DNA from: Bacteroidales bacterium
GTDB lineage: Bacteria; Bacteroidota; Bacteroidia; Bacteroidales; JACABE01
Length of the DNA: 64,000 nt
Assembly: GCA_038204725.1 (NCBI GenBank)
Contig: JBBRCQ010000002.1
Span: 50,846 to 114,845 of the forward strand
Reading direction: 5' to 3'
In this document: positions 1 to 16,255 of the stretch, one piece after another
Position numbering within the stretch: the stretch's first letter is position 1
How the letters are laid out: each line of letters starts with the position of its first letter
Position numbers and translations under genes: made by a program
The notes under the pieces: generated by a model
The model's input: the letters and a program-made list of their open reading frames with translations, nothing else
Databases searched by the model: none
What the model was told of the DNA's origin: nothing

Positions 1-1020
1 CATTTCATCATACATGTATTTAAAAACATCTTCCAATTGATAAGCAGGATGATTTTCTGCAGCTTCAAATTGTCTGTCAACCTCTTTTTTATATTCTATC
101 ACCAATTGATCTTCCTCTTTTTGAGTCCATATTTTTTTATTGATCAAATACTTGTTTAATCTGTACAAAGGGTCTTTGAGTCCCCAAACGGTTTCTTCTT
201 CCTTTGTCCTGTATTTAGTAGGATCATCAGATGTAGTATGCGCTCCTCTACGATAGGTTTCAGCTTCTATCAAAACCGGACCTTTTCCTGCTAATGCATG
301 TTCAGCAGCATTTTTTACAGCTTGATACATGGCGAAAAAATCATTTCCATCTACCTGTATGCCTTCCATACCATAAGCAACCGATTTAATAGCAATACCT
401 TTTGATACAGTTTGCATTTTAAATGGGGTAGAAATGCCGTATTGATTGTTTTGTACAATAAAAACCACGGGGACTTTCCATACAGCAGCAAAATTAAGTG
501 ATTCATGAAAATCACCTTCCGATGTTCCACCATCACCCACAAATGCAAAAACAACTTGCTCTTTTTTATTGTATTTTATTTCATAGCCAATTCCTGTAGC
601 ATGCGCTAATTGTGAAGCAATGGGAACCGACATCGGTAGCATATTATTGGCGTTTTTAAAAATGGCACCTTCTTCGTTGCCCATAAAAACAAGAAAAATT
701 TCTTTAAGTGTAGCACCCTTAGCTATATAAGCACCCAATTCACGGAAAGCAGGTACCAACCAGTCTTCGTTGCGCATTACCATAGCTGTTGCTCCTGAAA
801 TAGCTTCTTGTCCGTGATTGGGAGGGTAAGTATATATTCGACCTTGTCGTTGGTAAGAAACAGTTTGTAAATCGGCTATTCTTGCAAAAAGCATATCTTT
901 GTATGCTTTTATCAGTTTTTTATCAGTAATTTCAGGCATCCATTTCTTATTGATAACTTTGCCTTCGTTATCAATTACCCTGAATATCTTTTCTTTTAAA
1001 GGATTATATTCTTCAAACAT
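1..1020 (-). CDS. TPP-dependent 2-oxo-acid dehydrogenase E1 alpha subunit (pyruvate/acetoin/branched-chain type); C-terminal part lies outside the window
   Basis: Absent from the ORF track because there is no stop inside the window. My translation of the minus strand from the ATG at 1018-1020 gives MFEEYNPLKEKIFRVIDNEGKVINKKWMPEITDKKLIKAY... It later contains the TPP-binding signature FVGDGGTSEGDFHESLNFAAVWKVP. The frame stays open to position 1. Confidence 0.85.
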   Translation of the reverse strand, partial: MFEEYNPLKEKIFRVIDNEGKVINKKWMPEITDKKLIKAYKDMLFARIADLQTVSYQRQGRIYTYPPNHGQEAISGATAMVMRNEDWLVPAFRELGAYIAKGATLKEIFLVFMGNEEGAIFKNANNMLPMSVPIASQLAHATGIGYEIKYNKKEQVVFAFVGDGGTSEGDFHESLNFAAVWKVPVVFIVQNNQYGISTPFKMQTVSKGIAIKSVAYGMEGIQVDGNDFFAMYQAVKNAAEHALAGKGPVLIEAETYRRGAHTTSDDPTKYRTKEEETVWGLKDPLYRLNKYLINKKIWTQKEEDQLVIEYKKEVDRQFEAAENHPAYQLEDVFKYMYDEM

Positions 1021-1119
1021 TTTCTCTTTAGTACTAATGAATAATTAATTTTAAGTTAATATAGAACAATTATAAATAGGAAAGGTTCAAAATGTAACTG
1101 AAAGTGATATGACGTTATT

Positions 1120-1536
1120 TCAATGGATTTTTTTTATCCCTTCCAGTAATTTAATAATTTTATCTAATTTTTCAACATCCAAAATATCCAGCTTTTTTGC
1201 CAAATCTTCAATTTCCAGTTTTGCATCAACATTAGTTTGGTAATCGGATTCAGCATGCATTCTGTCTCTTTCGTTTTGCCGGTTTTGTGCCATCATAATA
1301 ATTGGTGCTGCATAAGCAGCTTGAGTAGAAAAAACCAGATTAAGTAATATGAATGGATACACATCCCAATGAGCAATAAACCCGAACACATTCAATCCCA
1401 TCCAAAGAATTACCAAAATTGTTTGTATAATGATAAAACTCCATGACCCCATACCTGCAGCTACAGAATCAGCTAAACGATTCCCAAAAGTTAATGTTTC
1501 ACTATGTTTTTCATGCCAATTTTTATGATTTTTCAT
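1120..1536 (-). CDS. DUF1003-family membrane protein
   Basis: 138 aa. Two central TM helices (SWSFIIIQTILVILWMGLNVFGF; YPFILLNLVFSTQAAYAAPIIMMAQN), then RQNERDR and a coiled C-terminus. This layout is typical of DUF1003. Confidence 0.65.
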   Translation of the reverse strand: MKNHKNWHEKHSETLTFGNRLADSVAAGMGSWSFIIIQTILVILWMGLNVFGFIAHWDVYPFILLNLVFSTQAAYAAPIIMMAQNRQNERDRMHAESDYQTNVDAKLEIEDLAKKLDILDVEKLDKIIKLLEGIKKIH

Positions 1537-1703
1537 ATATAATTAAATTTATTTTTAGTGGTATAACATTCTATAAACAAATTTGTTGATAATATTTTAC
1601 GGTTCAAATCATGATAAAAACCTTATTGATTAAATTTCTTCAGATTATCACTTTTATCTTTTCTCAATTCAATTAACAAAAATAGTCTGCTGCTTAACAA
1701 TTT

Positions 1704-2486
1704 TTAAATATTACTTTTCACATTATTCTTTTCCGGTAAATAATTCCAGAATCGTTTTGGCATAAATTGCATTTGAACTTTTAAATTCTTACGCTCTTTA
1801 ATATTAATGGTTTCGAAATAGCTTTTCCAGAGAAGCTGGTAAGTTTCTTCCTTTTCTTCGAGCAATGAAGCATCTATTTTCCCAGAAGATTTGTTGACTC
1901 CAATTTGTTCTAATTTGATTTCTTCTACCGTTTTTAAATCATGATATAATCCATAATCTCTCACAGTATCATAAATAATCCAAACCTGATCGCGAAAGCG
2001 GTTCCTGAAATGATTCCCTATCAATGGAATGATATCATATTGTGGTTCAATAGGTGCAAAGTAGATATTGCTATTTGTTTTCTGAAACCTTACAAACATA
2101 TACATACGGTGTGCTTCTTTTTGAACCATTTGTTGGATTTGTCTGATTTGTAACACACTTTCTTCACGATAATTAACCGAAACGTTGTAATTAGCTGTAA
2201 ATGCCAGTTGTAAGTAACGGTAAATCACTATTTCAATATCTTTAATTTCCGAAAGAAAAGCATGATATAACATATCACAGGCTTTGGGATTGGTTTTAGC
2301 CTGCAAACCTTTCCAAACCCTTTCTGCTTTGAGAACATCTGTTTCAATTTCAAAAGGAAGATCCAAAAGGGATGTCTGATAATTGTTTTTTCCAGTTATT
2401 ATACAGTCCTTTATTTTCATATTAAATAATTCAAATACAACCGTTAACAAACCTTCAAATGTTTTATCGTATAAAAAAATGTTCAT
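1704..2486 (-). CDS. TIGR03915/DUF4130-like putative DNA metabolism protein (partner of the upstream radical SAM gene)
   Basis: 260 aa starting MNIFLYDKTFEGLLTVVFELF, a typical family N-terminus. It sits directly downstream of the TIGR03916-like radical SAM gene on the same strand. Confidence 0.7.
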   Translation of the reverse strand: MNIFLYDKTFEGLLTVVFELFNMKIKDCIITGKNNYQTSLLDLPFEIETDVLKAERVWKGLQAKTNPKACDMLYHAFLSEIKDIEIVIYRYLQLAFTANYNVSVNYREESVLQIRQIQQMVQKEAHRMYMFVRFQKTNSNIYFAPIEPQYDIIPLIGNHFRNRFRDQVWIIYDTVRDYGLYHDLKTVEEIKLEQIGVNKSSGKIDASLLEEKEETYQLLWKSYFETINIKERKNLKVQMQFMPKRFWNYLPEKNNVKSNI

Positions 2487-2588
2487 ATAGTCAGTTTGTA
2501 AAGTTTATTAAATTTATAAAATGTTTTCAGAATGGTTATTAAAGAATTAAAGAATTAAGTTATTAACTAATAACTTAATAACCAATAA

Positions 2589-3851
2589 CTAAATTCCAAA
2601 TAACGACAATTGATTTTCATCAAAACGTTTCAACAATTTATGCTTTTCGTTTATAATGTTACTGCGGATCACAGAAGGTAAAATGTCTGTATGACCATCC
2701 GTGATTTGATTACAAGTGATAAAATATTTAGCCCGTTTTAACACAATTCCCATTTTCTTTAAATTGCTTTCGTTGAGACGTCCATATCGTCTTGAATGAA
2801 CAATTAGTTTAGCTGAACGCACACCTATTCCTGGAACTCTCAGTATCATTTCATAGTCCGCTTTGTTGATGTCAATGGGGAAAATGTGAGGATTGCGCAA
2901 TGCATAACTAAGTTTGGGATCCAGTTCAAGATCCAGTTGTTGAAACGCTTCATTTACGATTTCATCTACCTTGAATTCATAAAATCTCAATAACCAATCT
3001 GCCTGATAAAGCCTGTTTTCTCTTATCAAAGGTGGTTGTTTCAATGCAGGAAGTCGATTGTCAATCAATGTAACCGGTACATATCCAGAATAATATACTC
3101 TTTTCAACTTTTGATTATTGTAAAAGCCCGATGCCAATTGAAGTATCTGCAGGTCGCTTTCTGGAGTTGCTCCAATAATCAGTTGTGTGCTTTGACCGGC
3201 AGGAGCAAATACAGGTGAATTCCTGTATTTTTTTCGCTCCTCCTTGCTGATGATAATGTTTTCTTTGATCAAAGCCATGGGTTGATACACGCTTGCAAAA
3301 TCTTTATCGGGGGCTAACAGCTTAAGGTTTTGTTCTGTAGGAATTTCAATATTTACACTCATACGGTCGGCGTATAGGCCTGCTTGTTTAATCAATTCAG
3401 GATTAGCACCGGGTATGGCTTTCAGATGAATGTATGCATTGAAATGATAAACTTCTCTTAATTTCTTTGCTACATTCATCAATCTTTCCATCGTATAATC
3501 AGGGTTTCTCATCACACCTGAACTTAAAAACAAGCCTTCAATGTAGTTTCTCCGGTAAAAATTGATGGTTAATTCTGCAATTTCATCTACAGTAAATGCT
3601 GCTCTCGGAATATCATTGCTGCTGCGGTTCACACAATAGGCACAATCATAAATACAATGATTACTCAGCAAAACTTTTAACAACGAAATGCATCTTCCGT
3701 CTTCGGTAAAGCTATGACAAATGCCACAACTCACCGTATTGCCGATATTTTTCCCATTATTGCTTCTGTTACTTCCACTCGAAGAACAGGATACATCATA
3801 CTTAGCAGCATTGGAAAGAATATTCAGTTTAGTAAGGAGGGTGTCGTTCAT
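2589..3851 (-). CDS. Putative DNA modification/repair radical SAM protein (TIGR03916-like)
   Basis: 420 aa. Radical SAM CxxxCxxC cluster in SNHCIYDCAYCVN. C-terminal helix-hairpin-helix-like LRVPGIGVRSAKLIV. Confidence 0.8.
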   Translation of the reverse strand: MNDTLLTKLNILSNAAKYDVSCSSSGSNRSNNGKNIGNTVSCGICHSFTEDGRCISLLKVLLSNHCIYDCAYCVNRSSNDIPRAAFTVDEIAELTINFYRRNYIEGLFLSSGVMRNPDYTMERLMNVAKKLREVYHFNAYIHLKAIPGANPELIKQAGLYADRMSVNIEIPTEQNLKLLAPDKDFASVYQPMALIKENIIISKEERKKYRNSPVFAPAGQSTQLIIGATPESDLQILQLASGFYNNQKLKRVYYSGYVPVTLIDNRLPALKQPPLIRENRLYQADWLLRFYEFKVDEIVNEAFQQLDLELDPKLSYALRNPHIFPIDINKADYEMILRVPGIGVRSAKLIVHSRRYGRLNESNLKKMGIVLKRAKYFITCNQITDGHTDILPSVIRSNIINEKHKLLKRFDENQLSLFGI

Positions 3852-4009
3852 ATGATTTAGTAATTTGGTAATTTTAAATGAATAAAGAACTATTCACTGT
3901 TTGTTGAATATTAGGTTGATAAGTTATTTTACTCCAAGAATTTATTAAGTTATATTTTAATGAGTACTTAATTTTGAAATAAAAAATTAGGAATTGAATA
4001 AATAAATAC

Positions 4010-4017
4010 TAATTTTG
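4010..4017 (+). promoter_or_regulatory. Candidate Bacteroidota -7 promoter box (TAATTTTG) for the LexA-like/dinB operon
   Basis: Matches TAnnTTTG, 59 nt upstream of the ATG at 4076. Overlaps the first AAATACTAAT repeat. A second similar box lies at 3969-3976. Confidence 0.35.
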
Positions 4018-4075
4018 TGCAACAAAAATACTAATAAAATTAGCAATAAGTAGTAATTTAGTAAAATTTAACAAT

Positions 4076-4870
4076 ATGCAATTTATTTCAGAGAATATCA
4101 AGTATTTACGTAAAAAAAAGCAATTAACACAGGACGAACTGGCTTTGAAAATAGGAGTGAAGCGATCGATGATCGGTTCCTATGAAGAATCCCGTGCAAT
4201 TCCTAAATTGTCATTGTTACAAGCCATTGCTTTTTATTTTAATGTATCTTTAAATGATATATTGGACAGAGATCTGAGTATATCTGATTCAAAAACAGCA
4301 ACTTCTAAAGTTTATCCTGATGGTAGTAATTTAAGGGTTTTATCTACCATTGTTGACAAAGATAATAAAGAACTCATGACTGTAGTACCTGTAAAAGCTG
4401 CAGCAGGTTATCTCAATGGCTACGCTGATGTAGAATTTGTTGAAAGTTTAACGGCTTTTTCATTACCCTTGCCCGAAATTTCTCACGATCGTACCTATCG
4501 TATTTTTCAGATAAAGGGCGATAGCATGGAACCTTTGCCCACAGGAACATACATTATTTGCAGGTATCTGGATAACTGGTTCAATGTTAAGGATGGCAAA
4601 ACCTATGTAGTCCTTACCAAAGATGATGGTATTGTTTATAAAAGATTGTACAACCGTTTGGAAGAAACCAAAACCCTGGAAATGATTTCTGATAATCCCA
4701 TGTATTCACCTTACAGCGTTCGTATCGAAAATATTTTAGAAGTATGGCAGGCCATTGGAATGATCAGTTTTCAGCTACCCGATTCGGATGTTCCATCGCT
4801 TTTTAAATTAAATACGATGTTTACCGAACTGAAAAGCGATATCGAAACGCTTAAAAAAGCAATCGGTTAA
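4076..4870 (+). CDS. LexA-like self-cleaving repressor (XRE-type HTH + peptidase S24 domain)
   Basis: 264 aa. N-terminal HTH (LRKKKQLTQDELALKIGVKRSMIGSYE). S24 elements: Ala-Gly site in VKAAAGY, Ser in IKGDSMEP, Lys in GIVYKRL. Confidence 0.8.
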   Translation: MQFISENIKYLRKKKQLTQDELALKIGVKRSMIGSYEESRAIPKLSLLQAIAFYFNVSLNDILDRDLSISDSKTATSKVYPDGSNLRVLSTIVDKDNKELMTVVPVKAAAGYLNGYADVEFVESLTAFSLPLPEISHDRTYRIFQIKGDSMEPLPTGTYIICRYLDNWFNVKDGKTYVVLTKDDGIVYKRLYNRLEETKTLEMISDNPMYSPYSVRIENILEVWQAIGMISFQLPDSDVPSLFKLNTMFTELKSDIETLKKAIG

Positions 4871-4873
4871 ATA

Positions 4874-5944
4874 ATGATTAAAAAAATCATACACATTGAT
4901 ATGGATGCTTTTTATGCTTCTGTCGAACAACGGGATAATCCTGATTTGAGAGGAAAACCGATTGCTGTTGGATGGGACAAAGAGCGCAGTGTAGTTAGCA
5001 CAGCAAGTTATGAAGCTCGTAAATTCGGAGTACATTCGGCTTTACCTTCTGTTATTGCCCGGAAGAAATGTCCGGAATTGATTTTTGTGGAACCTCATTT
5101 TGAAGTTTATCATTTGGTTTCAAAACAAATCAGAGAAATATTTCTTGAATATACTGATTTGGTGGAACCTTTGTCGTTGGATGAAGCTTATCTGGATGTT
5201 ACCGAAAACAAAAAGAACATTGCATCAGCCAGCCTGATTGCCAGAGAAATAAAAGATAAAATTAAAGAAGTAACCGGTTTAACAGCTTCTGCTGGTGTTT
5301 CCTACAATAAATTTCTGGCTAAAATTGCTTCCGATTATCAGAAACCGGATGGTTTGTGTGTGATAAAACCTAAAGAAGCGCTTTTATTTATTGAACAACT
5401 GGATATTGAAAAGTTTCATGGAATAGGTAAAGTAACTGCCCTTAAAATGCATAAAATGGGTATTCACAAGGGAATTGATTTAAAGCATTTATCAGAAAAT
5501 GAATTGATTAAATTATTTGGGAAACAAGGTTCTTATTATTATGGCATTGCCAACGGAATTGACGAAAGAGAAGTAATCCCGCACAGAGAAAGGAAATCTT
5601 TAGGTTCGGAATATACTTTTGAAAAGGATTTAACCAAAAAGTTTGAAGTAATCACCGAATTGTATAAAATTGAAAAAGATTTGATGCAAACCATTGAAAA
5701 ATATCAATATTATGGCAAAACCCTTACCTTAAAGGTTAAATATGCCGATTTTAAACAACATACTAAAAGTAAGTCCCTTGATTTTGACATTTGCGATTTC
5801 CAGCTTTTACATAAAACAGTCAAAGAACTCTTGAAAGCTGTTCCATTTAATGATACAAACTTGAAAATAAGATTATTAGGATTGAGTGTGTCAAATTTTA
5901 AAAGTTATAAAAATGAAAATAAACAAATGAAATTAAAATTGTAA
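4874..5944 (+). CDS. dinB: DNA polymerase IV (Y-family translesion polymerase)
   Basis: 356 aa starting MIKKIIHIDMDAFYASVEQRDNPDLRGKPIAVG, with SLDEAYLDV. Starts 3 nt after the repressor stop. Confidence 0.9.
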   Translation: MIKKIIHIDMDAFYASVEQRDNPDLRGKPIAVGWDKERSVVSTASYEARKFGVHSALPSVIARKKCPELIFVEPHFEVYHLVSKQIREIFLEYTDLVEPLSLDEAYLDVTENKKNIASASLIAREIKDKIKEVTGLTASAGVSYNKFLAKIASDYQKPDGLCVIKPKEALLFIEQLDIEKFHGIGKVTALKMHKMGIHKGIDLKHLSENELIKLFGKQGSYYYGIANGIDEREVIPHRERKSLGSEYTFEKDLTKKFEVITELYKIEKDLMQTIEKYQYYGKTLTLKVKYADFKQHTKSKSLDFDICDFQLLHKTVKELLKAVPFNDTNLKIRLLGLSVSNFKSYKNENKQMKLKL

Positions 5945-6007
5945 CAGATTTTTGTATCTTTACCCTCTTTTTTATTAATTATTAACCATTTATAAAATAA
6001 ATGAACC

Positions 6008-7021
6008 ATGAAAGTTTTAAAAATTACCGGAATTATTTTAGGTGTAATTATCTTATTATTTCTGTTTATTGGCATGTTTTTGCCAAAAAACGTATCTATT
6101 GAGGAGTCCGTAGAAATAAAAGCTCCTGCAAATGTTATTTTTGCACAAATAAACAACTTTACTAAATGGAGCCAATGGTCACCATTCCTGGATTCAACAG
6201 AGTTAATGAAAACAACCTATGAAGGACAGGAAGAAGGAGTAGGTTCCATTATGAAATGGGAGAGTGAAAAACAGGGTAATGGAAGTATGACAATTGTTGA
6301 TGTTGCACCTAATCAATACATTAAAGCTGAGCTGAGTATGGAAGATCACGGGAAGTCTTTTATTAATTGGGATTTTAAGCCTACACAGGATGGAACTTTG
6401 GTTGTTTGGGGTATTGCTATGCAGGATTTATCCTATCCGATCGGAAAATGGATGGGTTTGTTAATGAAAGGTATGATGCATAACGATTTTAAAAAGGGTT
6501 TGAATACATTGAAAGATCTATGCGAAAGTGGAAAAGCAATGGGAAACAATCCTTGGATAACATCGGAAGTTGTTGAAAAAGAAGTTGCTCCAATGATGGC
6601 ATTGTCGATTAAAGATTCTTGTACCATCAATGAGTTCGATCAGAAGTTTGGAGAAATTTATTCGAAAATCAACACTTATGTTGATAAAATGAAAGTTGAA
6701 CAAACTGGTGCTCCTTTTACTATTTATTATACCTGGAACCCTGAAGGACTTACTGTTTTTGAAGCAGGAATCCCAATTAATAAAAAAATAAAAGGGAATG
6801 GTAGCATAATGTTTTCGGATATTCCGGCTAAAAAAGCTGTAACAGCATCACAGTTTGGGCCTTATGAAACCAGTGGATTTGCGCATGAAGCTATAGAAAA
6901 TTACCTGATAGATAAGAGTTTAACCTGTATAGGTGCTCCTTGGGAAGTGTATGTTACCGATCCCGGCAAAGAAACTGATACAGCAAAATGGGAAACTCAG
7001 GTTTATTATCCTGTTCAATAA
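6008..7021 (+). CDS. Membrane-anchored SRPBCC domain + GyrI-like small-molecule-binding domain protein
   Basis: 337 aa. N-terminal TM helix, an SRPBCC-like half (IKAPANVIFAQINNFTKWSQWSPF) and a GyrI-like C-terminal half ending WETQVYYPVQ. Confidence 0.6.
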   Translation: MKVLKITGIILGVIILLFLFIGMFLPKNVSIEESVEIKAPANVIFAQINNFTKWSQWSPFLDSTELMKTTYEGQEEGVGSIMKWESEKQGNGSMTIVDVAPNQYIKAELSMEDHGKSFINWDFKPTQDGTLVVWGIAMQDLSYPIGKWMGLLMKGMMHNDFKKGLNTLKDLCESGKAMGNNPWITSEVVEKEVAPMMALSIKDSCTINEFDQKFGEIYSKINTYVDKMKVEQTGAPFTIYYTWNPEGLTVFEAGIPINKKIKGNGSIMFSDIPAKKAVTASQFGPYETSGFAHEAIENYLIDKSLTCIGAPWEVYVTDPGKETDTAKWETQVYYPVQ

Positions 7022-7040
7022 ATGATCCAATACTAAAACA

Positions 7041-7077
7041 AAATGGGAGCCAAATCTGATAGAATTGACTCCCATTT
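7041..7077. terminator. Bidirectional hairpin terminator
   Basis: AAATGGGAG (7041-7049) pairs with CTCCCATTT (7069-7077). There is a T/A-rich run on both sides, 20 nt after the stop of 6008..7021. Confidence 0.6.
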
Positions 7078-8099
7078 CATCTTTTAATAGCCATAGCCTT
7101 TAAAAGATGTCAAGCTACTGTTTATATGACCTTCCTTTGTGGTTTGCATCCTTACGGTTGCATCCTTTAAGGTTTTCGTTTTTTGAACGGTTTCATTCTT
7201 TGCAGAATTTCGCCCTTCTCAAACTTTGCTTTTCGAAATTAACGCTGATTTCGTTTTTCCTTGCGGATGCGTTTTCCAGTGTTACATCTTACTCCACTAT
7301 TTCTTTTACAAGTTTTCGTCTTTCAGATTTTTCATTCTCAAGCCAGCCTTTTATCTCTTACTTGATGAAACAAAGATACATCAAAATCAGTCGTTTGTCA
7401 AGTGTTTTCAGCTTCTATTTATAAACAATTTACAAACAATAGTTATCAACAATTTGTTAATAACTTTTAATTTATTAAACGTTTGTTTTGTTGCACATTA
7501 AGTCGGATTGTAAAAATAATCAACAGGGTTTATTAACAAATTACGATTTAATAATATAATAATCTAATTATTTTTTTTGTATTTTTGCTATTTGGGAATA
7601 AATTATTCATTATATAGTTTTGTAATTTGCTGGGAAATATTATCAAAAGTAATAAATCTAAGTTCAATGAAAATATTATTCTATTCATTTCATGCAATTT
7701 TAATTTTAATATTATAGTAAATTTCCTGTTTCTTAGAGTGGTATTAATGTTGGCAAACAAAAAAATAAATTTTGTTATCACTGATTCATGAAATAATTGT
7801 AATTTTGGCAATGATTATAAGCTATCAATGCAATTTAAATTTGAAAATGTTTGATATTCATCTGAATTTTTAATCAATTTACAATTTGAAATATTATTTA
7901 GACTTTTAAATTGTCAATTGATTTTAGCATTTCTATTGCAAAATAATGATAAAAATACGTTTAAATTTGTTCATATTATCAGGAATTGTTACAAATACAT
8001 TAAGAATGTAATTTGAGATATCTGACTGAAGAACATATGCATGCTGGCGTTAATCATAACATTTATTTAGGGTAAGGCATCCGATTTTCATTTTATTAT

Positions 8100-9356
8100 A
8101 TGAACAAACAGAGGTATAAAGATTATATTGTTACTTTTATTACTGAAGCTTTTGTACTGATAGCCGGTATATTGGTTTATAAGTTTGCGAACAATCTGAT
8201 TGGAGATACATCTTTTTCTGAATATGCACTTGTAAAAAGGACACTATCTTTTATACAACCTATTTTAATGCTGGGAATGGGAGTTGGAATTCCCCGATAT
8301 ATTGCGTTTGCCCTAGGAAAAGGAAAAAAGAAAGATTCAATTTCCTATTTTTTTAATGGTTTTATGATGGTATTGTTTTTAGGGCTGGTATTAGCATTGT
8401 TTTTATTACTGTTCCCTTCAGCTTTCTCTTTTTTGTTTTTTGGGAATACCTCGTATTTTTATCTGATTTATCCATTGTTACTCATGTGCATTGGATTGTT
8501 ACTTCATTCTTCTATTTATTCATACTTTAGAGGAAATATCATGATGTTTCCAGCAAACCTTTTACAGATTATTAATTTAGGAATTGTTCCTATTATTTCC
8601 TTTGCATTTTCAAAAGATATAGTCGTTGTTTTTTATTTGAACGGAATATTTTGGGTTTTTGTATCAATAATGTTCTTTTTAAAAATACTGATTAAAAATT
8701 ATACAGTTTTACATTTTAATTTTAAAATTGCCAGGGAATTACTAATTTACGGAGTACAAAGAATGCCAGGTGACATTGCTATTGCAGGTCTTTTTAGTTT
8801 ACCTGCATTTTATGCAGCTCATTACAAAGGGGTTAAGGAAGCCGGTTATGTTGCGTTTGGCATTATTCTGTTAAATATGGTGGGTGCTGCATTTGGACCC
8901 ATCTGTTTAATTTTGCTTCCTGAATCCAGCAAGATGATATCGGAAAACAGACTGGCCGATTTATTAAAAACTGCCCACAGATTAACTTTAGGAACCTTGA
9001 TAATCACATTGATAGGATTTGTTGTTTATTATATATTTGCAGCTCAGATATTGACGTTGTATTTTGGAACTGTTGATCCTGCCCTGATTGAAATTTCTAA
9101 AATAATAATGCTTGGATGTTTTGGATATACATTATATATTTCATTGCGAAGTATTTTAGATGCATTTTATATTAAAGCTGTAAATACAAAAAATATTTTC
9201 ATAGTTTTTATTATATTTCTAATCACATCTTTTATCATCTTATTATTTTCTGATAATTTTAATTTTGTGCTTTTTTCATTGGCCATATCACTTAATATAC
9301 TTGGTTTACTTACACTCTTAGAAATCAATAAAATAAAAAAAAATAATTCGATTTAA
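8100..9356 (+). CDS. Polysaccharide flippase (Wzx/MOP superfamily-like)
   Basis: 418 aa, multi-pass hydrophobic protein. First gene of a plus-strand glycan locus. Confidence 0.6.
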   Translation: MNKQRYKDYIVTFITEAFVLIAGILVYKFANNLIGDTSFSEYALVKRTLSFIQPILMLGMGVGIPRYIAFALGKGKKKDSISYFFNGFMMVLFLGLVLALFLLLFPSAFSFLFFGNTSYFYLIYPLLLMCIGLLLHSSIYSYFRGNIMMFPANLLQIINLGIVPIISFAFSKDIVVVFYLNGIFWVFVSIMFFLKILIKNYTVLHFNFKIARELLIYGVQRMPGDIAIAGLFSLPAFYAAHYKGVKEAGYVAFGIILLNMVGAAFGPICLILLPESSKMISENRLADLLKTAHRLTLGTLIITLIGFVVYYIFAAQILTLYFGTVDPALIEISKIIMLGCFGYTLYISLRSILDAFYIKAVNTKNIFIVFIIFLITSFIILLFSDNFNFVLFSLAISLNILGLLTLLEINKIKKNNSI

Positions 9357-9358
9357 AT

Positions 9359-10816
9359 ATGAATTTTATTTTAATACTCACATTTTATACCCTGCTTTAT
9401 TTTTTCTTATCATGGAAAGTGTGGAAGCAAACTAAAGAATATGTCCTTCAATTTGGATTGTTTTTTTTATTTTATTGGACTTTATTAGGTGCCTGGGTTT
9501 TTACTATAGATGCTTTAACAGGCTTTAATGGAGCTAAAATTGGCTTATCTTATTATTATATTTCAGAAAAATTATTTCCTTTCAAATTAGATCATAATTA
9601 TTTATTGGCAATTAATTATTTGGGACTTTTTTTACTTTTAATTCCATCTTTCCTTTTGGTTTTTATGAAACGATCCAACAAATCGCTTAAAAAACTTCAA
9701 ACTGAAATTAAAGGACAAATTAAAACTGTATATATAAATCATTATATTTTGATTTTAATTGGCTTAATATCAATTATATTTAGCTTTTTTTTAATTTATA
9801 AAGAAATATTTTTAGCAATTAATAAAGGATTGTCTATTTATACCATAACTCGAAGTTTACCAAATAAATGGTATACATTACATCAACTTTTAAATCAAGT
9901 TTCAGTAGTCTCCTTATATATTGGGTTAACAATTCTGCTTTCTCAAAAAACCGGAAAATTTATCAAAGGAAATGATCATTTGATTATTAAATGGTTATAT
10001 TTAATTTCTTTTGTTATTATTGTTTTTTATTTAATGATTTTAGGGAATCGGAGAGAATTATTGTTTGCCGGTATATTATCAATAAGTTTATTTTGGTTGA
10101 ATAATAATAAAAAGATACATTTTCCTAATTTAAGTATTCTCTTTATTGCTTTTTTTGTTCCAATGTTTTTAAATCATTATTTCCGAAGAATGGCTACTCC
10201 AATGTTGCTGAATATCGTTCGTTTTTTTGGAGTTTCTTTCGATCATACGGTTATCATTTTACCTATGGATGACGTTCAGTTAGGTGGTATGTTTTCATCT
10301 TTGTTTTTATCGAATGAAATGTTTTTTGCTCATTTTTCAATGTATGGAATTTTATTGTTTAATCTTCCTTTTTCTTATGGTGGAAGTTTTGTAAATCTGA
10401 TTTCTTCAATAATCCCTAGAGCTATATATCCTTATAGACCTGAAACTGCTTATGATTTATATGTTTCCGGAGTTCATGCCGTTGGTGGACAGGGTTATAC
10501 GATAAATCATGCAGCTGCTTGGTATATTAACTTTGGCGTGTTGGGTATAATCATTGGTGCATTAATCCTTGGATATCTGATGTTTTATTTACTGAAGAAA
10601 CAAAACAAAATCGGTTATTTTAAATCTGATTTTAAAAATTTGTTTTTTTTATTAGCTTTTACTTCACTTATTGCATTTATTCCTTCAATTATTAGAAGCG
10701 GACCCGAAGTTTATAAGTCAGTTTTATTTGAAGCATTATTATTGCCATGTTGTACAATTTTTTTAGCTACATTATCTTATAAAAAAATAAAACATATCTT
10801 TAAAAGTAAGGGTTAA
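9359..10816 (+). CDS. Oligosaccharide repeat-unit polymerase-like membrane protein (Wzy-type)
   Basis: 485 aa with more than 10 predicted TM segments. Starts 2 nt after the flippase gene, in glycan-locus context. Confidence 0.5.
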   Translation: MNFILILTFYTLLYFFLSWKVWKQTKEYVLQFGLFFLFYWTLLGAWVFTIDALTGFNGAKIGLSYYYISEKLFPFKLDHNYLLAINYLGLFLLLIPSFLLVFMKRSNKSLKKLQTEIKGQIKTVYINHYILILIGLISIIFSFFLIYKEIFLAINKGLSIYTITRSLPNKWYTLHQLLNQVSVVSLYIGLTILLSQKTGKFIKGNDHLIIKWLYLISFVIIVFYLMILGNRRELLFAGILSISLFWLNNNKKIHFPNLSILFIAFFVPMFLNHYFRRMATPMLLNIVRFFGVSFDHTVIILPMDDVQLGGMFSSLFLSNEMFFAHFSMYGILLFNLPFSYGGSFVNLISSIIPRAIYPYRPETAYDLYVSGVHAVGGQGYTINHAAAWYINFGVLGIIIGALILGYLMFYLLKKQNKIGYFKSDFKNLFFLLAFTSLIAFIPSIIRSGPEVYKSVLFEALLLPCCTIFLATLSYKKIKHIFKSKG

Positions 10817-10817
10817 A

Positions 10818-11762
10818 ATGATGACTATTTTCATAACAGGCGCAGGAGGTTTTATCGGCAAACATTTGCTTAAAGAGCTTCATTTATTGAATGTTAAGCT
10901 GTTTTTGTTAATCAGAGAAAATGATAGTATACCTGCTTTTCAGTATGCTAATATCGAATGGATTAAGGGTGATTTAATCAATCCTGCCAGCTATCGTGAA
11001 TTTCTGAAAAAATCTGACGTAGTCATCCACATGGCTGCCGAATTGTATAATCCAAAGTATTTTATGGAAACAAATGTTGAAGCGGTTGATCTTATGATCA
11101 ATGAAATTAATGCTTCTTCAGTTAAAAGAGTTATTCATCTGAGCAGTGTTGGCGTTGTGGGGATGCAACATAGTTCCAAAAAAATCATAGTGAATGAAGT
11201 ATCGGCATGTTTTCCGAAAAATGAATATGAAAGAACCAAATTGATTTCCGAAAAATTATGGAAAGAAAAATTAATAAACAAAGATCTTGTAATTATAAGA
11301 CCCACCAATGTTTTTGGAGAAGAACATCCCCGAAAACACCTGAAAAATATTATTGAACATATTACCCATAAAAAATATTTTTTATGTTCAGCACATTCGA
11401 TGGTCAATTATGTATATGCAGGTGATATTGCATCATCCATTGCATTTTTTCTTGTAAATACTGAATTGAATGAAACCTATAATGTAGGTGAAAGCATCTC
11501 AATGCATCAGTTTGTAGCTATCATCAGAAAACATACAGCCTCTCAGTGTAAAATAATATTTATACCTGAAATGTTTTTTCGATTATTAAATGCATTTAAG
11601 TTTCTGTTTCCTTCAGAATTATTCAGTAAACTAATTTCGTTGAACAATAAGGTAGTTTATTCAGATGAAAAATTGAAAAAACTTCATCAATATACTTACG
11701 GTATTGAAACCGGATTAAAAAATACCTGTGATTATTATTTAGAACCTCGAAATCATGCTTAG
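10818..11762 (+). CDS. NAD-dependent epimerase/dehydratase (SDR family)
   Basis: 314 aa. Rossmann motif FITGAGGFIGKHL at the N-terminus. Confidence 0.8.
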   Translation: MMTIFITGAGGFIGKHLLKELHLLNVKLFLLIRENDSIPAFQYANIEWIKGDLINPASYREFLKKSDVVIHMAAELYNPKYFMETNVEAVDLMINEINASSVKRVIHLSSVGVVGMQHSSKKIIVNEVSACFPKNEYERTKLISEKLWKEKLINKDLVIIRPTNVFGEEHPRKHLKNIIEHITHKKYFLCSAHSMVNYVYAGDIASSIAFFLVNTELNETYNVGESISMHQFVAIIRKHTASQCKIIFIPEMFFRLLNAFKFLFPSELFSKLISLNNKVVYSDEKLKKLHQYTYGIETGLKNTCDYYLEPRNHA

Positions 11763-12834
11763 AATTTGTTTTTTAGCCGATGGGCAAAGTATTCATACAC
11801 AAAGGTGGTGCGATTATTTCAGCGGGCAAGGGCATGAAATACATCTGATAACTTTCCGTAAATCGGAAATCAAATCAGCAACTGTCCATTTTATTGATGT
11901 TGGAGGAATAAATGTTTCAGGAGGTAACTGGAAAACATTGTTGAGTGTTCCCAAAATCAAAAAAATATTGCAGCAAATTAAACCTGATATTTTACACGCC
12001 CATTATGCTACCAGCTATGGCATTGCCGGGGTTTTATGCAATTTTAAACCTTATATCATCACTACTTTAGGTTCTGATATTTTATTGAGCCCTCAAAATT
12101 CAATCATCATCCGGACTTTGTTGAAATTTGTCTTCAGAAAAGCTGTATGGATTACAGCTATGGCAGAACACATGAAAACTGTTATTATTGCTTTAGGAGC
12201 TGATGCATCCAAAGTATCGGTGGTTCCATTTGGAATTGATCCCATTGTTTTTAATGCAAATAACAGGCAATTGCCTGATGATAAATTTGTAATAACAAGC
12301 ACCAGAAATTTTGAGGATGTATATAACATTCCACATTTATTGAAAGCAGTATCTCTGATAAAAGATCAAATTCCCAATGTGAAGTTAAATTTGATCGGGG
12401 AGGGTTCGCAACGAAAAAAGATAGAACAAATGGTTATTGACCTAAATTTGAGCAATTGTACAACTTTTTACGGAAAAATCCCACAACCTCAGATTGCCGC
12501 ATTATTAAATCAATCCCATTTATTTATTAGTGTATCTTTGTCCGATGGAAACAACATTTCATTAAACGAAGCGATGGCATGTGGAACACTTTGTATTACA
12601 ACAGATATACCTGCTAATACTCAATGGATCACTGACAACGAAAATGGATTTTTAGTGAAAATTAACGATGTGAAAAGTTTAGCTGAAAAAATACTTCTTT
12701 CATACCATGATTATGATAAAATTCAGGCAATTGCTTCAGCAATAAACTTTGATATCATCGAAAAGCGAGCGATCTGGTCAAAAAATATGAAAATGGTTGA
12801 AGTTAAATATTTATCCATTTTACAAAAAACATAA
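11755..12834 (+). CDS. Glycosyltransferase family 4 (GT-B fold)
   Basis: 359 aa. The C-terminal half carries the typical GT4 signature (SLSDGNNISLNEAMACGTLCITTDIPANTQWI...GFLV). Confidence 0.75.
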   Translation: MLRICFLADGQSIHTQRWCDYFSGQGHEIHLITFRKSEIKSATVHFIDVGGINVSGGNWKTLLSVPKIKKILQQIKPDILHAHYATSYGIAGVLCNFKPYIITTLGSDILLSPQNSIIIRTLLKFVFRKAVWITAMAEHMKTVIIALGADASKVSVVPFGIDPIVFNANNRQLPDDKFVITSTRNFEDVYNIPHLLKAVSLIKDQIPNVKLNLIGEGSQRKKIEQMVIDLNLSNCTTFYGKIPQPQIAALLNQSHLFISVSLSDGNNISLNEAMACGTLCITTDIPANTQWITDNENGFLVKINDVKSLAEKILLSYHDYDKIQAIASAINFDIIEKRAIWSKNMKMVEVKYLSILQKT

Positions 12835-12919
12835 TACAACAATATTGTAAAATGGTTTTGCAATAGTTTTTAAATTAATATGAATGTAGCACTCTCAATC
12901 TGTTTTAAAAGAATATAAG

Positions 12920-13456
12920 ATGATTAAACCCAAAATTATACTGATAGGTGCCGGTGGTCATGGAAAAGTGCTTGTAGATGCAATTTTGTTGCAGGGAAAA
13001 TATGAAATTGCCGGCTTTGTTGATTCCACAATTGCAGTAGATACTGAAATATACAGAAATTATAAAGTGATTCTTTCACAAAACGAATTGAATAAAATAA
13101 GCAATTGTGCTGATTTTTTTATAGTTGCAATTGGAAACAATTCAATCCGTGAAAAACTATTTATTGAAGCCGGAAAATATATAAAACCCGCTATTATTAT
13201 TCATCCTTCTGCAATAATTGGTTCAGATGTTTCCATTGGAGACGGAACTGTGATTTTAATAAATTCAGTGATCAACAGCTGCAGCCGGATTGGGAAAAAT
13301 ACGATCGTTAATTCAGGTGTTATTATTGATCATGAATGCCAAATCGGAAATAATGTTCACCTTTCAATAGGTACGCTTGTTGGAAGCAATACTATGATTG
13401 AAAACAGCTTAACCACAACTATTGGACAACATATTCAGTCGTTTTCAAAAATCTAA
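12920..13456 (+). CDS. Sugar O-acyltransferase, NeuD/PglB/VioB hexapeptide-repeat family
   Basis: 178 aa. N-terminal ILIGAGGHGKV, then left-handed beta-helix hexapeptide repeats (IGDGTVILINSVINSCSRIGKNTIVNSGVII). Confidence 0.75.
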   Translation: MIKPKIILIGAGGHGKVLVDAILLQGKYEIAGFVDSTIAVDTEIYRNYKVILSQNELNKISNCADFFIVAIGNNSIREKLFIEAGKYIKPAIIIHPSAIIGSDVSIGDGTVILINSVINSCSRIGKNTIVNSGVIIDHECQIGNNVHLSIGTLVGSNTMIENSLTTTIGQHIQSFSKI

Positions 13457-13558
13457 AATGGAATATTTTTTCGACACAACAAAGGCAAGAGAAACTTTAC
13501 AATTCTAATAAAAATCTGTAAATAAAAATAGGATTCAATTAAATAATTAAATATACAG

Positions 13559-14572
13559 ATGAAAGTTAGCATTGTTATTCCCTGTAGAAATGAAGCACAG
13601 TATATTGGTGCATGTTTACTATCTATTGTAAAAAACGATTTTGATAAAAATGAACTTACAGTCCTGGTTTGTGATGGATTAAGTACTGATAATACCGTTG
13701 CAATCATCCATGAATTTGCATTAAAATATAATTATATTCATTGTATTGAAAATGCTAAAAAAACAACTCCTTTTGCATTGAATCTGGGTATCATCCAATC
13801 AATGAATTCAGACTTCATTATGATTTTAGGCGCTCATTCTGAATTGTCAGAAAATTATCTTACAGGAATATTAAAAACATTTGAACAACATCCGGATGCT
13901 GCATGTGTAGGGGGATATACCAATAATATCTATGAAAACGATAAAGCACTTTCTATTGGAAAAGCGATGTCTTCAAAGTTTGGTGTAGGAAATGCTCATT
14001 TTAGACTGGGAAATAAAAGTGGCTGGGTTGATACTGTTGCTTTTGGTACTTACAGACGAGTAGTTTTTCAAAATATCGGACTTTTTGATGAAGATTTAGC
14101 CCGTAACCAGGATGATGAATTCAGTTACAGAATGCAAAAAAATGGTTTGAAAATATATTTAAACAGTAATTGTTTGATTAATTATTATGTTAGATCATCC
14201 TATAAAAAATTATTCAGTCAGTATTATCAGTATGGTTTATGGAAAGTATATGTAAATAAAAAGCATAAAGCTGTTACTTCTGTTAGGCAAATTGTACCTT
14301 TTTTACTTGTTGGGTATACCGTTTTAGCAACAATTTTATCTTTTATTTTTCCTGAAGTTTTACCCTTTGCCGTTGGATGTTTATTGGTTTATTTTATAAC
14401 GGCATTCATGCTTGCATTTATCAATGGGGATAAATTAAAAGAAAAATCTGGTATTTTCTGGAGCTATTTATTATTGCACTATGGTTATGGTTTAGGTTAC
14501 CTATTTGGTATCATCAAATTTGTGATTTTGCGAATGCAACCCAATAAAAAGGATGAAGTTCTGACACGATAA
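13559..14572 (+). CDS. Glycosyltransferase family 2 with C-terminal TM segments
   Basis: 337 aa starting MKVSIVIPCRNEAQYI, with a DxD-like region (CDGLSTD) and QDDEFSYR. Confidence 0.8.
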   Translation: MKVSIVIPCRNEAQYIGACLLSIVKNDFDKNELTVLVCDGLSTDNTVAIIHEFALKYNYIHCIENAKKTTPFALNLGIIQSMNSDFIMILGAHSELSENYLTGILKTFEQHPDAACVGGYTNNIYENDKALSIGKAMSSKFGVGNAHFRLGNKSGWVDTVAFGTYRRVVFQNIGLFDEDLARNQDDEFSYRMQKNGLKIYLNSNCLINYYVRSSYKKLFSQYYQYGLWKVYVNKKHKAVTSVRQIVPFLLVGYTVLATILSFIFPEVLPFAVGCLLVYFITAFMLAFINGDKLKEKSGIFWSYLLLHYGYGLGYLFGIIKFVILRMQPNKKDEVLTR

Positions 14573-14707
14573 TATTGATTTTTATTTCTTATTTAAATTT
14601 GTATGGATATAAAATATTAATTTTAAAGATTTATTGAATTTAAAATGTAAACATAAAATTCTAATATATATAATAGAAAAACTCAAAAACAACTTAAATT
14701 AAATAGA

Positions 14708-16252
14708 ATGTTTCAATTAAAGAAAATCTGGGAAGAAAAAACATTGCTTTGTATTTTAACTATTGCATTTGCAGCAAGGTTAATAGCTGTGTTTTTTGCC
14801 AAAGGTTTTGGGATGCATGATGATCATTTTTTAGTGATAGAAGCAGCCCAATCATGGGTAGATGGAAGTGATTATAACAATTGGTTACCCTGGACACCCG
14901 GCAATACAGGTCCTTCAGGTCATAGCTTTTTTTATGTTGGGATACATTATGTCTTATTTACAATCATTAAATGGCTGCAAATTGAGGATCCTCAATCAAA
15001 AATGATTGTGATCAGGCTGGTGCATGCTGTATGGTCATTATTGGTAGTATATTTCGGATATAAAATTGTTGAAATAGCTGCCAATAAAAAGGTTGCCATT
15101 CAGGCAGGCTTGCTTTTGGCTTTGTGTTGGTTCTTCCCATGGATAAGTGTAAGAAATCTTCCGGAAGTAGCTTCTATCCCTTTTCTGATATGGGCAGTCT
15201 GGTTAATTTATAAAAAACAAAACATCAATGCCTTTGCCAGGGAATATTTATGGGCGGGAATTTTGTTCGGTCTAGCCTTTTCAATGCGTTTTCAAACTGC
15301 ATTGTTTATTTCAGGAATAGGATTGGTTATGTTGATTCGTTGGCAATGGAAACCAATTTTGTTGCTGGTTTCAGGCTTTTTGATTTCCATCTTTATATTT
15401 GAAGGATTGGTAGATTGGATTTTATGGGGTACTCCTTTTTCCGAAATGTTGGTTTATATTCAGTATAATATCGACCATTCAAATGATTATATTGTCACAG
15501 CCTGGTATACTTATTTATTATTAATAGGAGGAATACTGATACCTCCCGTCAGCTTGTTTCTGTTTGTCGGTTTCTTAAAAAGCTGGAAAAAATATTTATT
15601 ATTGTTTCTGCCAGCATTTATTTTTCTTGTTTTTCATAGTACATTTCCAAACAAACAGGAACGATTTATACTGACAATTATACCCTTTTTTATAATAGCC
15701 GGTATTTTAGGCTGGAATTTAATTATTAATAATTCTGATTTCTGGAAAAAAAGAAAAAAAACGTTGAAAGTTTGCTGGATCATATTCTGGGTGCTGAATT
15801 TTATTTTAATGCCATTTATATCTACACATTATTCTAAAAAATCGAGGGTGGAGTCTATGGTGTATTTGTCGCATTACAAAAACATAAAATATATACTTAC
15901 AGAAAATACAAATGCAGGCGATACTAAATTGTTGCCTGAGTTTTATTTAGGACAGTGGATACATACTTTCGATATCAGTCAAAGCTATTCTCTTGATTCG
16001 TTAAAAGGATTGTTGAACAATTCAAGATATGAAGATGTATTGCCGAGATTTTTTATTTTTGAAGAATCAAAAAATATAGGTGAAAGGGTTCACAATGTGA
16101 AGCGTTATTTTCCAAATATTGAATATGAAACTACAATATATCCCGGTTTTGTTGATAATTTGCTGTATCGTTTAAATCCTATCAATGCGAATCAAATACT
16201 CATTATATACAGAAATAAAGATTTTTATCCGCAAAAGTTGCAAATAAAATAA
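14708..16252 (+). CDS. GT-C fold mannosyltransferase-like membrane protein (GT22/PMT_2-like)
   Basis: 514 aa, multi-TM. The first-loop acidic motif GFGMHDDHFLVIE resembles the HPDE motif of GT22-type enzymes. Confidence 0.5.
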   Translation: MFQLKKIWEEKTLLCILTIAFAARLIAVFFAKGFGMHDDHFLVIEAAQSWVDGSDYNNWLPWTPGNTGPSGHSFFYVGIHYVLFTIIKWLQIEDPQSKMIVIRLVHAVWSLLVVYFGYKIVEIAANKKVAIQAGLLLALCWFFPWISVRNLPEVASIPFLIWAVWLIYKKQNINAFAREYLWAGILFGLAFSMRFQTALFISGIGLVMLIRWQWKPILLLVSGFLISIFIFEGLVDWILWGTPFSEMLVYIQYNIDHSNDYIVTAWYTYLLLIGGILIPPVSLFLFVGFLKSWKKYLLLFLPAFIFLVFHSTFPNKQERFILTIIPFFIIAGILGWNLIINNSDFWKKRKKTLKVCWIIFWVLNFILMPFISTHYSKKSRVESMVYLSHYKNIKYILTENTNAGDTKLLPEFYLGQWIHTFDISQSYSLDSLKGLLNNSRYEDVLPRFFIFEESKNIGERVHNVKRYFPNIEYETTIYPGFVDNLLYRLNPINANQILIIYRNKDFYPQKLQIK

Positions 16253-16255
16253 CAA

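Follow-up and report, generated by a model that had tools for sequence, protein, structure and literature searches.

The DNA analyzed here, a 64-kb stretch of contig JBBRCQ010000002.1 from a Bacteroidales bacterium (the window), carries close to its left end a cassette of four genes arranged as two divergent operons. A radical S-adenosylmethionine (SAM) gene and a DUF4130 gene lie on the minus strand, and a gene for a non-canonical LexA repressor and dinB lie on the plus strand. The cassette comprises the following features, at positions of the window:

1704 to 2486, minus strand: standalone DUF4130/TIGR03915 gene, second in the radical SAM operon (260 amino acids; TIGR03915 and PF13566 matches)
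2487 to 2588, minus strand: 102-nucleotide spacer inside the radical SAM operon, separating its two genes and containing an AT-rich hairpin (RNAfold, -10.9 kcal/mol)
2589 to 3851, minus strand: radical SAM gene of family TIGR03916 (420 amino acids; TIGR03916 and Radical_SAM PF04055)
3852 to 4075, no strand: divergent control region of 224 bp, common to both operons (open reading frame coordinates; conserved core in a six-way alignment)
4076 to 4870, plus strand: non-canonical LexA gene (264 amino acids; HTH_3 and Peptidase_S24)
4874 to 5944, plus strand: dinB, encoding DNA polymerase IV (356 amino acids; NF002677 and IMS, IMS_C, IMS_HHH)

A preliminary description of this DNA had placed the four genes at these coordinates, and the list of open reading frames contains all of them. 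The 224-bp control region between the operons is confirmed, as is the dinB ATG 3 nucleotides past the repressor stop codon, and the peptide motifs on which the preliminary description had relied (SNHCIYDCAYC, LRVPGIGVRSAKLIV, VKAAAGY, GDSMEP and VYKRL) are all found in the translations. In a profile search, the dinB product scores 460 bits against the DNA polymerase IV family NF002677 (cut-off, 256), which is an equivalog-level match and is accompanied by Y-family domains. Because dinB starts 3 nucleotides after the repressor gene ends, the two genes are co-transcribed.

The repressor consists of an XRE/CI-type helix-turn-helix (HTH) domain in residues 1 to 73, a linker that contains a putative cleavage site at Ala110-Gly111, an S24 core, and a C-terminal helix in residues 242 to 263. 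It had been proposed to be of the XRE-HTH/S24 type rather than a winged-helix LexA, and the profile searches agree: Pfam assigns the N-terminus to HTH_3 (PF01381, E 5.2e-13) and the remainder to Peptidase_S24 (E 2.2e-10), and neither Pfam nor NCBIfam gives a LexA_DNA_bind (PF01726) or LexA family match. Residues Ala110-Gly111, Ser150 and Lys189 do not vary among 28 aligned homologues that are 49-100% identical, which is suggestive of RecA-dependent self-cleavage at Ala110-Gly111.

Searches of PDB sequences, either with the repressor alone or with the 28-sequence profile, matched HTH domains and not LexA, CI or UmuD, so the S24 fold was settled by structure prediction and Foldseek. An AlphaFold (AF2) model built from the 28-homologue alignment has a moderate overall predicted local distance difference test (pLDDT) score of 64. 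In this model the HTH is confident (helices in residues 2 to 73, pLDDT 81-90), the S24 core at 158 to 231 is acceptable, and the terminal helix spans 242 to 263. The best full-length matches in the PDB are the lambda repressor, CI (3bdn, 7jvt), and Thermotoga LexA (3k2z). The modelled S24 core superposes on the C-terminal domain of E. coli LexA at 2.6-2.9 A over about 95 columns (2.6 A over 96 columns in the closest fit), and the fold of the N-terminus matches the HTHs of SinR, CylR2, 434-type repressors and lambda CI.

Non-canonical LexA proteins of Bacteroidetes bind CTAA-N5-TTAG or GGA-N5-TCC, as established by electrophoretic mobility-shift assays with site-directed mutants (Sanchez-Osuna et al., Nucleic Acids Res 2021, PMC8565304). 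Their target genes are induced by mitomycin C according to reverse-transcription quantitative PCR, and the regulon comprises dinB together with the radical SAM operon, given there as the two-gene unit COG1573-COG4277 (PMC8565304). The CTAA-N5-TTAG operator was validated by mobility-shift assays and mutagenesis for the Pontibacter actiniarum protein WP_025606010.1 (PMC8565304). We compared the window repressor with the validated proteins by using the C-terminal sequences in the supplementary alignment of PMC8565304. Its C-terminal domain is 44% identical to that of the P. actiniarum CTAA-binder (161 bits, E 8e-55), in an alignment that runs to residue 261 and through the terminal helix, versus 36% identity and 88.6 bits for a Salegentibacter protein of the GGA-N5-TCC group. 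Judged by sequence, the repressor has its nearer relative in the validated protein of the CTAA group, not in that of the GGA-N5-TCC group.

The window repressor shares with the CTAA-group protein of P. actiniarum a multi-helical CI-type HTH, an Ala-Gly linker, an S24 Ser/Lys core and an extra C-terminal helix, as well as the phylum, the same operator in its own promoter, and a regulon that includes dinB and TIGR03916/TIGR03915 genes. Nothing essential separates it from the CTAA-group LexA proteins of that paper; the window has a single operator between two predicted divergent promoters that overlap. Like canonical E. coli LexA, it has an S24 C-terminal domain and an autoregulated SOS regulon with dinB. 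Unlike canonical LexA, it has an XRE/CI-type DNA-binding domain, a different operator and an extra C-terminal helix, and lacks PF01726. The terminal alpha-helix after the S24 core is a feature of this repressor that is absent from LexA and CI.

Homologues of the repressor in a large protein database derive from Bacteroidota metagenome-assembled genomes labelled Bacteroidales or Marinilabiliales, and a few of them are already named "LexA family transcriptional regulator". Several close homologues are from metagenome-assembled genomes called "Bacteroidales bacterium", yet both repressor groups are stated to be absent from the order Bacteroidales (PMC8565304). This conflict is probably a difference in taxonomic labelling, and the named relatives belong to Marinilabiliales genera. 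Genera related to the organism of the window (Draconibacterium, Prolixibacteraceae, Labilibaculum and Salinivirga) are included in the published data set as LexA group 2 with motif 2 (PMC8565304). A search of contigs with the single repressor sequence returned one unrelated Firmicutes HTH match only.

The control region contains one perfect CTAA-N5-TTAG palindrome, and this is also the only exact match in the window, compared with shuffled-sequence expectations of 1.36 per window and about 0.005 per 224 bp. Candidate promoters were located through TAnnTTTG, the -7 promoter consensus of Bacteroidetes. The elements of the control region are these:

4010 to 4017, plus strand: candidate -7 promoter box TAATTTTG for the repressor-dinB operon (same aligned position in relatives; fits TAnnTTTG)
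4023 to 4030, minus strand: candidate -7 box TATTTTTG for the radical SAM-DUF4130 operon, abutting the operator (sole CAAAnnTA in the spacer)
4031 to 4043, no strand: operator CTAATAAAATTAG, a palindrome that fits CTAA-N5-TTAG perfectly (no second exact match in the window)
4057 to 4061, plus strand: invariant TTTAG, 14 nucleotides 5' of the repressor ATG (invariant columns in the six-way alignment)

The plus-strand letters at 4023 to 4030 are CAAAAATA, which the minus strand reads as TATTTTTG. The rightward box TAATTTTG ends 5 bases left of CAAAAATA, and the operator is 13 nucleotides downstream of TAATTTTG. Perhaps the TTTAG at 4057 to 4061 is a half-site; it could also belong to another -7-like box, TAATTTAG, at 4054 to 4061. 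The other published motif, GGA-N5-TCC, was rejected as the operator here: it has 14 matches in the window (7.6 expected), none of which is in the spacer. A scan for Sigma-70 promoters gave counts at or below shuffle expectation, with a model that is not applicable to Bacteroidetes promoters.

Relatives of the locus were collected as eight contexts found by exact-protein look-up and as 80 metagenomic loci found with the family profile; codes such as L002 and L003 denote these homologous stretches. In the six-way alignment of spacers, ACAAA..TAC.AA..A....AG forms a conserved island amid unalignable AT-rich DNA, and ACAAA..TAC.AA within it is invariant. Flank counts extend the operator consensus to TA-CTAA-N5-TTAG-YA, which corresponds to 4029 to 4045 in the window. 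A TAATTTTG-type box is found at the same aligned position in the window, L002, L003, L004, L006, L011, L014 and L016. At least one perfect operator box is present in 16 of the 21 unique spacers between radical SAM and repressor genes. A leftward -7 box (CAAAnnTA) abuts a perfect box in 10 of these spacers, and abuts a box with at most one mismatch in 13. In L005, L007, L013 and L018 the -7 box is sandwiched between two boxes, 4-47 nucleotides from the radical SAM ATG, and partial sandwiches occur in L009 and L022.

In L006, L008, L012 and L024, the box that abuts the -7 element departs from TTAG in its right half (three of them read C(T/C)AAT.AAAACAG, and L024 reads CTCATTAAATCAG). The variants could reflect operator drift or a changed specificity, and divergence of the motif among paralogues has been reported (PMC8565304).

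The arrangement of genes is conserved along with the operator. Where the repressor shares 50% identity or more with that of the window, a divergent TIGR03916 gene lies directly upstream of the repressor gene in 17 of 19 loci, versus three of 51 assessable loci that are more distant. Of 20 related divergent loci, 16 gave a DUF4130 match, and the module is kept in relatives whose repressor identity is as low as 41%. Within the subclade of the window, the radical SAM operon is thus a conserved divergent neighbour of a CTAA-group LexA, and this tight linkage suggests that the pair is a core SOS effector and not an accessory. The main text of PMC8565304 does not mention a divergent arrangement (the word "divergently" does not occur in it), and its Table S5 includes a pair in Arenibacter, a TIGR03915 gene and a LexA-family gene, with sites in common.

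The position of dinB is less constant. The gene is 3' of the repressor gene only in the closest relatives (L002, L003, L004 and L011). A dinB-like gene occurs on the radical SAM side in L006, where positions 1121 to 3562 hold radical SAM and dinB genes without DUF4130, and in L018, where positions 1192 to 4360 hold radical SAM, DUF4130 and dinB genes. These two loci imply that dinB moves between the two divergent operons. L029, L034, L035, L038 and L040 have distant repressors, and the dinB behind them is a different one.

The locus is a copy of the published non-canonical LexA switch of Bacteroidetes, of which the regulator, the operator and the membership of the regulon have been known since 2021. 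It very probably constitutes the SOS master-switch region of a Bacteroidota genome of the Marinilabiliales/Bacteroidales type. Damage-inducible control, as put forward in the preliminary description, is supported, because the shared spacer holds the operator known for this repressor family. The single operator appears to serve both divergent promoters. Conserved linkage, abutment of the box, the sandwiches, the core of the alignment and the operator flanks argue for direct repression of the radical SAM operon, beyond mere neighbourhood.

Under the mechanism that we propose, a dimer of the 264-residue repressor would bind the palindrome CTAATAAAATTAG at 4031 to 4043. At the leftward promoter, the operator abuts the candidate -7 box TATTTTTG (4030 to 4023) and would fill the space between the -33 and -7 elements. 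At the rightward promoter, with its candidate -7 box TAATTTTG at 4010 to 4017, the operator would occupy about +8 to +20. One bound dimer would therefore shut off both operons: radical SAM-DUF4130 to the left and lexA-dinB, perhaps with a GyrI-like gene, to the right. Upon DNA damage, RecA filaments on single-stranded DNA would trigger self-cleavage of the Ala110-Gly111 bond by Ser150 and Lys189, whereupon the repressor would release the operator and both operons would be induced. Fresh repressor would restore repression through autoregulation. Induced polymerase IV would carry out translesion synthesis, and the radical SAM protein, with its [4Fe-4S]/SAM center and helix-hairpin-helix (HhH) tail, would most likely form with DUF4130 as a nucleic-acid-binding subunit a complex for radical-based repair or processing of damaged DNA.

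Several points weigh against this reading. The experiments on operator binding and on induction by mitomycin C concern orthologues from other organisms. Self-cleavage is a putative property throughout this repressor family; PMC8565304 itself states that it has no data from non-cleavable mutants. The part of the repressor model that would bear on cleavage, residues 73 to 150 with the linker and the cleavage site, is poorly modelled (pLDDT below 50). The positions of the promoters are predicted from sequence; TAATTTAG at 4054 to 4061 could be the real lexA promoter, and the proposed leftward promoter implies a leader of 171 nucleotides in the window versus 57-65 nucleotides in L003, L004 and L011. 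Five of the 21 spacers have no perfect box, four of these having a variant right half that ends in CAG. With regard to the enzymes, an AlphaFold model of the radical SAM protein was unusable (pLDDT 50.7), because the homologues used were all at least 63% identical. The substrate and the chemistry of the pair, like its role in DNA repair or processing, are inferred.

Between the conserved promoter/operator core and the start codon of the radical SAM gene, the window (3852 to 3990) and L002 (5828 to 5915) are longer by about 60-115 AT-rich bases, among which L002 has tandem AATCTTTG repeats. Rfam gave no match in this added DNA. A scan of positions 1 to 9000 of the window against Rfam gave only chance-level matches at E up to 1, which implies that the long radical SAM leader contains no riboswitch or small RNA.

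The two minus-strand proteins belong to the families to which they had been assigned, TIGR03916 and TIGR03915/DUF4130; placement in unrelated families, which the preliminary description had named as a refutation, did not result from the profile searches. The radical SAM protein scores 661.6 bits against TIGR03916 (cut-off, 343.5), across model positions 2 to 415 of 415. The protein is very highly conserved: its CX3CX2C motif consists of Cys66, Cys70 and Cys73, and 25 homologues show no variation at these three cysteines or at numerous further positions. The helix-hairpin-helix claimed for this protein stands as a motif around residues 324 to 369 near the C-terminus; the HHH_3 profile reaches only 22.8 bits, under its cut-off of 27 bits, and a match to ComEA (2duy) supports the assignment. 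No structure of a relative has been solved; PDB searches by profile and by sequence yielded for the radical SAM protein only the Fe-S loop (HydG, ThiH and HydE) and the HhH (ComEA), and for the DUF4130 protein no match.

The DUF4130 protein scores 258.1 bits against TIGR03915 (cut-off, 112.25) and matches PF13566 with E 3.9e-51. This domain is its only one: no uracil-DNA glycosylase (UDG) domain is present in its 260 amino acids. The best 120 homologues likewise have PF13566 only and are 185-286 amino acids long, all but one being 252-286. In the eight annotated contexts, the neighbouring genes were considered and do not include a UDG gene, though one may lie elsewhere in the genome.

These observations bear on the putative UDG base-excision SOS operon COG1573-COG4277 (TIGR03914/TIGR03915-TIGR03916), for which control by LexA has been reported in Verrucomicrobia, Alphaproteobacteria and Bacteroidetes (cited in PMC8565304). 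The window pair resembles this UDG operon in having the same TIGR03916 family, the DUF4130 partner family and DNA-damage-linked regulation. Unlike that operon, it has as partner DUF4130 alone, without a family-4 UDG domain. Because the partner is DUF4130 alone and no UDG gene is nearby, the published label "UDG base excision repair system" does not fit this locus, and a uracil-excision reading cannot apply to it in its present form.

The spacing of the two genes is variable, at 102 nucleotides in the window, 117 in L002 and 251 in L009, and only 3-25 in L004, L005, L007 and L008. In L003, whose repressor is 80% identical to that of the window, a DDE transposase gene (positions 3482 to 4384) is located between the radical SAM and DUF4130 genes, and the flanking genes look intact.

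The pair had been described as having no established chemistry, and this stands as far as the searchable literature shows: searches on TIGR03916, TIGR03915 and COG4277 revealed, in titles and abstracts, no apparent biochemical study. An AlphaFold 3 model of the radical SAM-DUF4130 complex in a 2026 preprint is a confident heterodimer (interface score ipSAE, 0.80) with SAM beside the cluster, and DUF4130 is suggested there to be a non-catalytic subunit that binds nucleic acid. Aravind's group, which earlier connected DUF4130 with mutagenesis and repair, suggested that the pair "might modify thymines". In Acinetobacter, the WYL activator DdaA controls a DNA-damage regulon that includes both of these genes (PMC12392091).

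It is possible, and we propose it tentatively, that the radical SAM protein and its glycosylase-free DUF4130 partner constitute a self-contained, SOS-induced enzyme that, with polymerase IV, reverses or processes a replication-blocking lesion by radical chemistry. This idea is based on the finding that the pair is the component most tightly tied to the SOS repressor, with linkage in 17 of 19 loci and an operator in common, while dinB shifts between operons. Spore photoproduct lyase and SplB-like proteins (COG1533, the PA0069 family) are a functional analogy only: they are radical SAM proteins that act on DNA and are SOS-regulated in many bacteria. The window protein differs from them in that it is above the cut-off for TIGR03916 only, and no spore photoproduct lyase chain is among its PDB matches at E up to 1. 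The regulon in PMC8565304 lists the two families separately.

Alternatively, the pair might be a nucleic-acid modification enzyme that methylates, methylthiolates or otherwise marks single-stranded DNA or RNA in the SOS state, without repairing lesions and with regulation as proposed. The comparison of the predicted complex with RlmN, Cfr and MiaB in the 2026 preprint, the thymine-modification proposal with its relation to mutagenesis, and the NCBIfam name, which fits either repair or modification, are all compatible with such an enzyme. However, three regulators that are unrelated to one another (LexA, non-canonical LexA and DdaA) control the pair together with genes for repair and translesion synthesis, and other lineages have it fused with, or linked to, a UDG-family domain. 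Its operon includes dinB in L006 and L018, and no methyl-donor or cobalamin domain was detected in the pair with Pfam. A modification enzyme is therefore rather unlikely, if still to be taken seriously.

A second alternative leaves the enzymes aside and holds that the operator serves lexA-dinB only, the radical SAM-DUF4130 operon being a mere neighbour, transcribed from an unregulated promoter of its own within the 170 bp on the side of its start codon. The box is 179 nucleotides from the radical SAM ATG and 32 from the repressor ATG, the spacer has no second box with at most one mismatch (the few intergenic one-mismatch boxes elsewhere in the window are unremarkable), and the promoters are predicted ones. 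Yet the sole leftward TAnnTTTG in the spacer abuts the box, this abutment is kept in 13 of the 21 spacers, and the sandwiches in six loci, two of them partial, put boxes on both sides of the -7 box. Also, many Bacteroidetes have predicted sites before TIGR03916/TIGR03915 genes, including genomes in which these genes are not beside lexA (PMC8565304). Control of both operons from the shared operator is thus the reading that we retain, and an unregulated neighbour is improbable.

That the repressor is instead a CI-type immunity repressor of a prophage or mobile element is very improbable: its best PHROG match is the phage repressor family phrog_4 (E 3.8e-25), its HTH resembles those of phage and toxin-antitoxin regulators, and a phage origin of the repressor family has been argued (PMC8565304), but the flanks contain no phage or mobile-element genes (the neighbours being DUF1003, a polysaccharide locus and a topoisomerase), neither the radical SAM nor the DUF4130 protein has a PADLOC or PHROGs match, the same chromosomal arrangement is found across genomes with 41-55% repressor identity, and the operator is the published chromosomal SOS box.

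Two features follow dinB on the plus strand:

6008 to 7021, plus strand: SRPBCC and GyrI-like gene, a possible third gene of the repressor-dinB operon, of uncertain membership (337 amino acids; Polyketide_cyc2 and GyrI-like domains)
7041 to 7087, plus strand: likely intrinsic terminator ending the plus-strand unit, a hairpin at 7041 to 7077 followed by a T-rich tail (RNAfold, -15.5 kcal/mol)

A scan found no terminator-like site between dinB and the SRPBCC and GyrI-like gene, and this gene is also 3' of dinB in L011 and L004. The E. coli GyrI-like gene sbmC/gyrI is SOS-induced, so the gene in the window may be the third member of the repressor-dinB operon.

The terminator is followed by about 1 kb of very AT-rich non-coding DNA (7100 to 8100; GC content down to 0.20), which separates it from a polysaccharide-biosynthesis locus at 8100 to 17527 with a MatE-like flippase, an epimerase, glycosyltransferases and a Wzy-like polymerase. 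At 17726 to 19558 on the plus strand is a ParE/GyrB-like gene for the B subunit of a type IIA topoisomerase, and the best operator box upstream of it has two mismatches. SOS regulation of parE-parC has been reported in Bacteroidetes (PMC8565304). The gene at 19846 to 21642, also on the plus strand, codes for a streptopain-like Peptidase C10 protein that is secreted and combines an inhibitor I69 prodomain and a CUB domain with a type IX secretion sorting tail.

Relative to the published switch, the additions made here are modest: divergent linkage throughout a subclade, a single, apparently shared operator set against a candidate -7 box, the absence of a glycosylase partner, and the mobility of dinB. 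The radical SAM-DUF4130 pair is very widespread, with more than 8000 relatives below E 1e-20, and is repeatedly damage-regulated. If the pair does act on a replication-blocking lesion, it would represent a second radical SAM chemistry for DNA repair, after spore photoproduct lyase, and the "UDG base-excision" label on the operon would be wrong for many genomes. The locus is a compact example of the arrangement, and a template for the study of how the pair acts on DNA.

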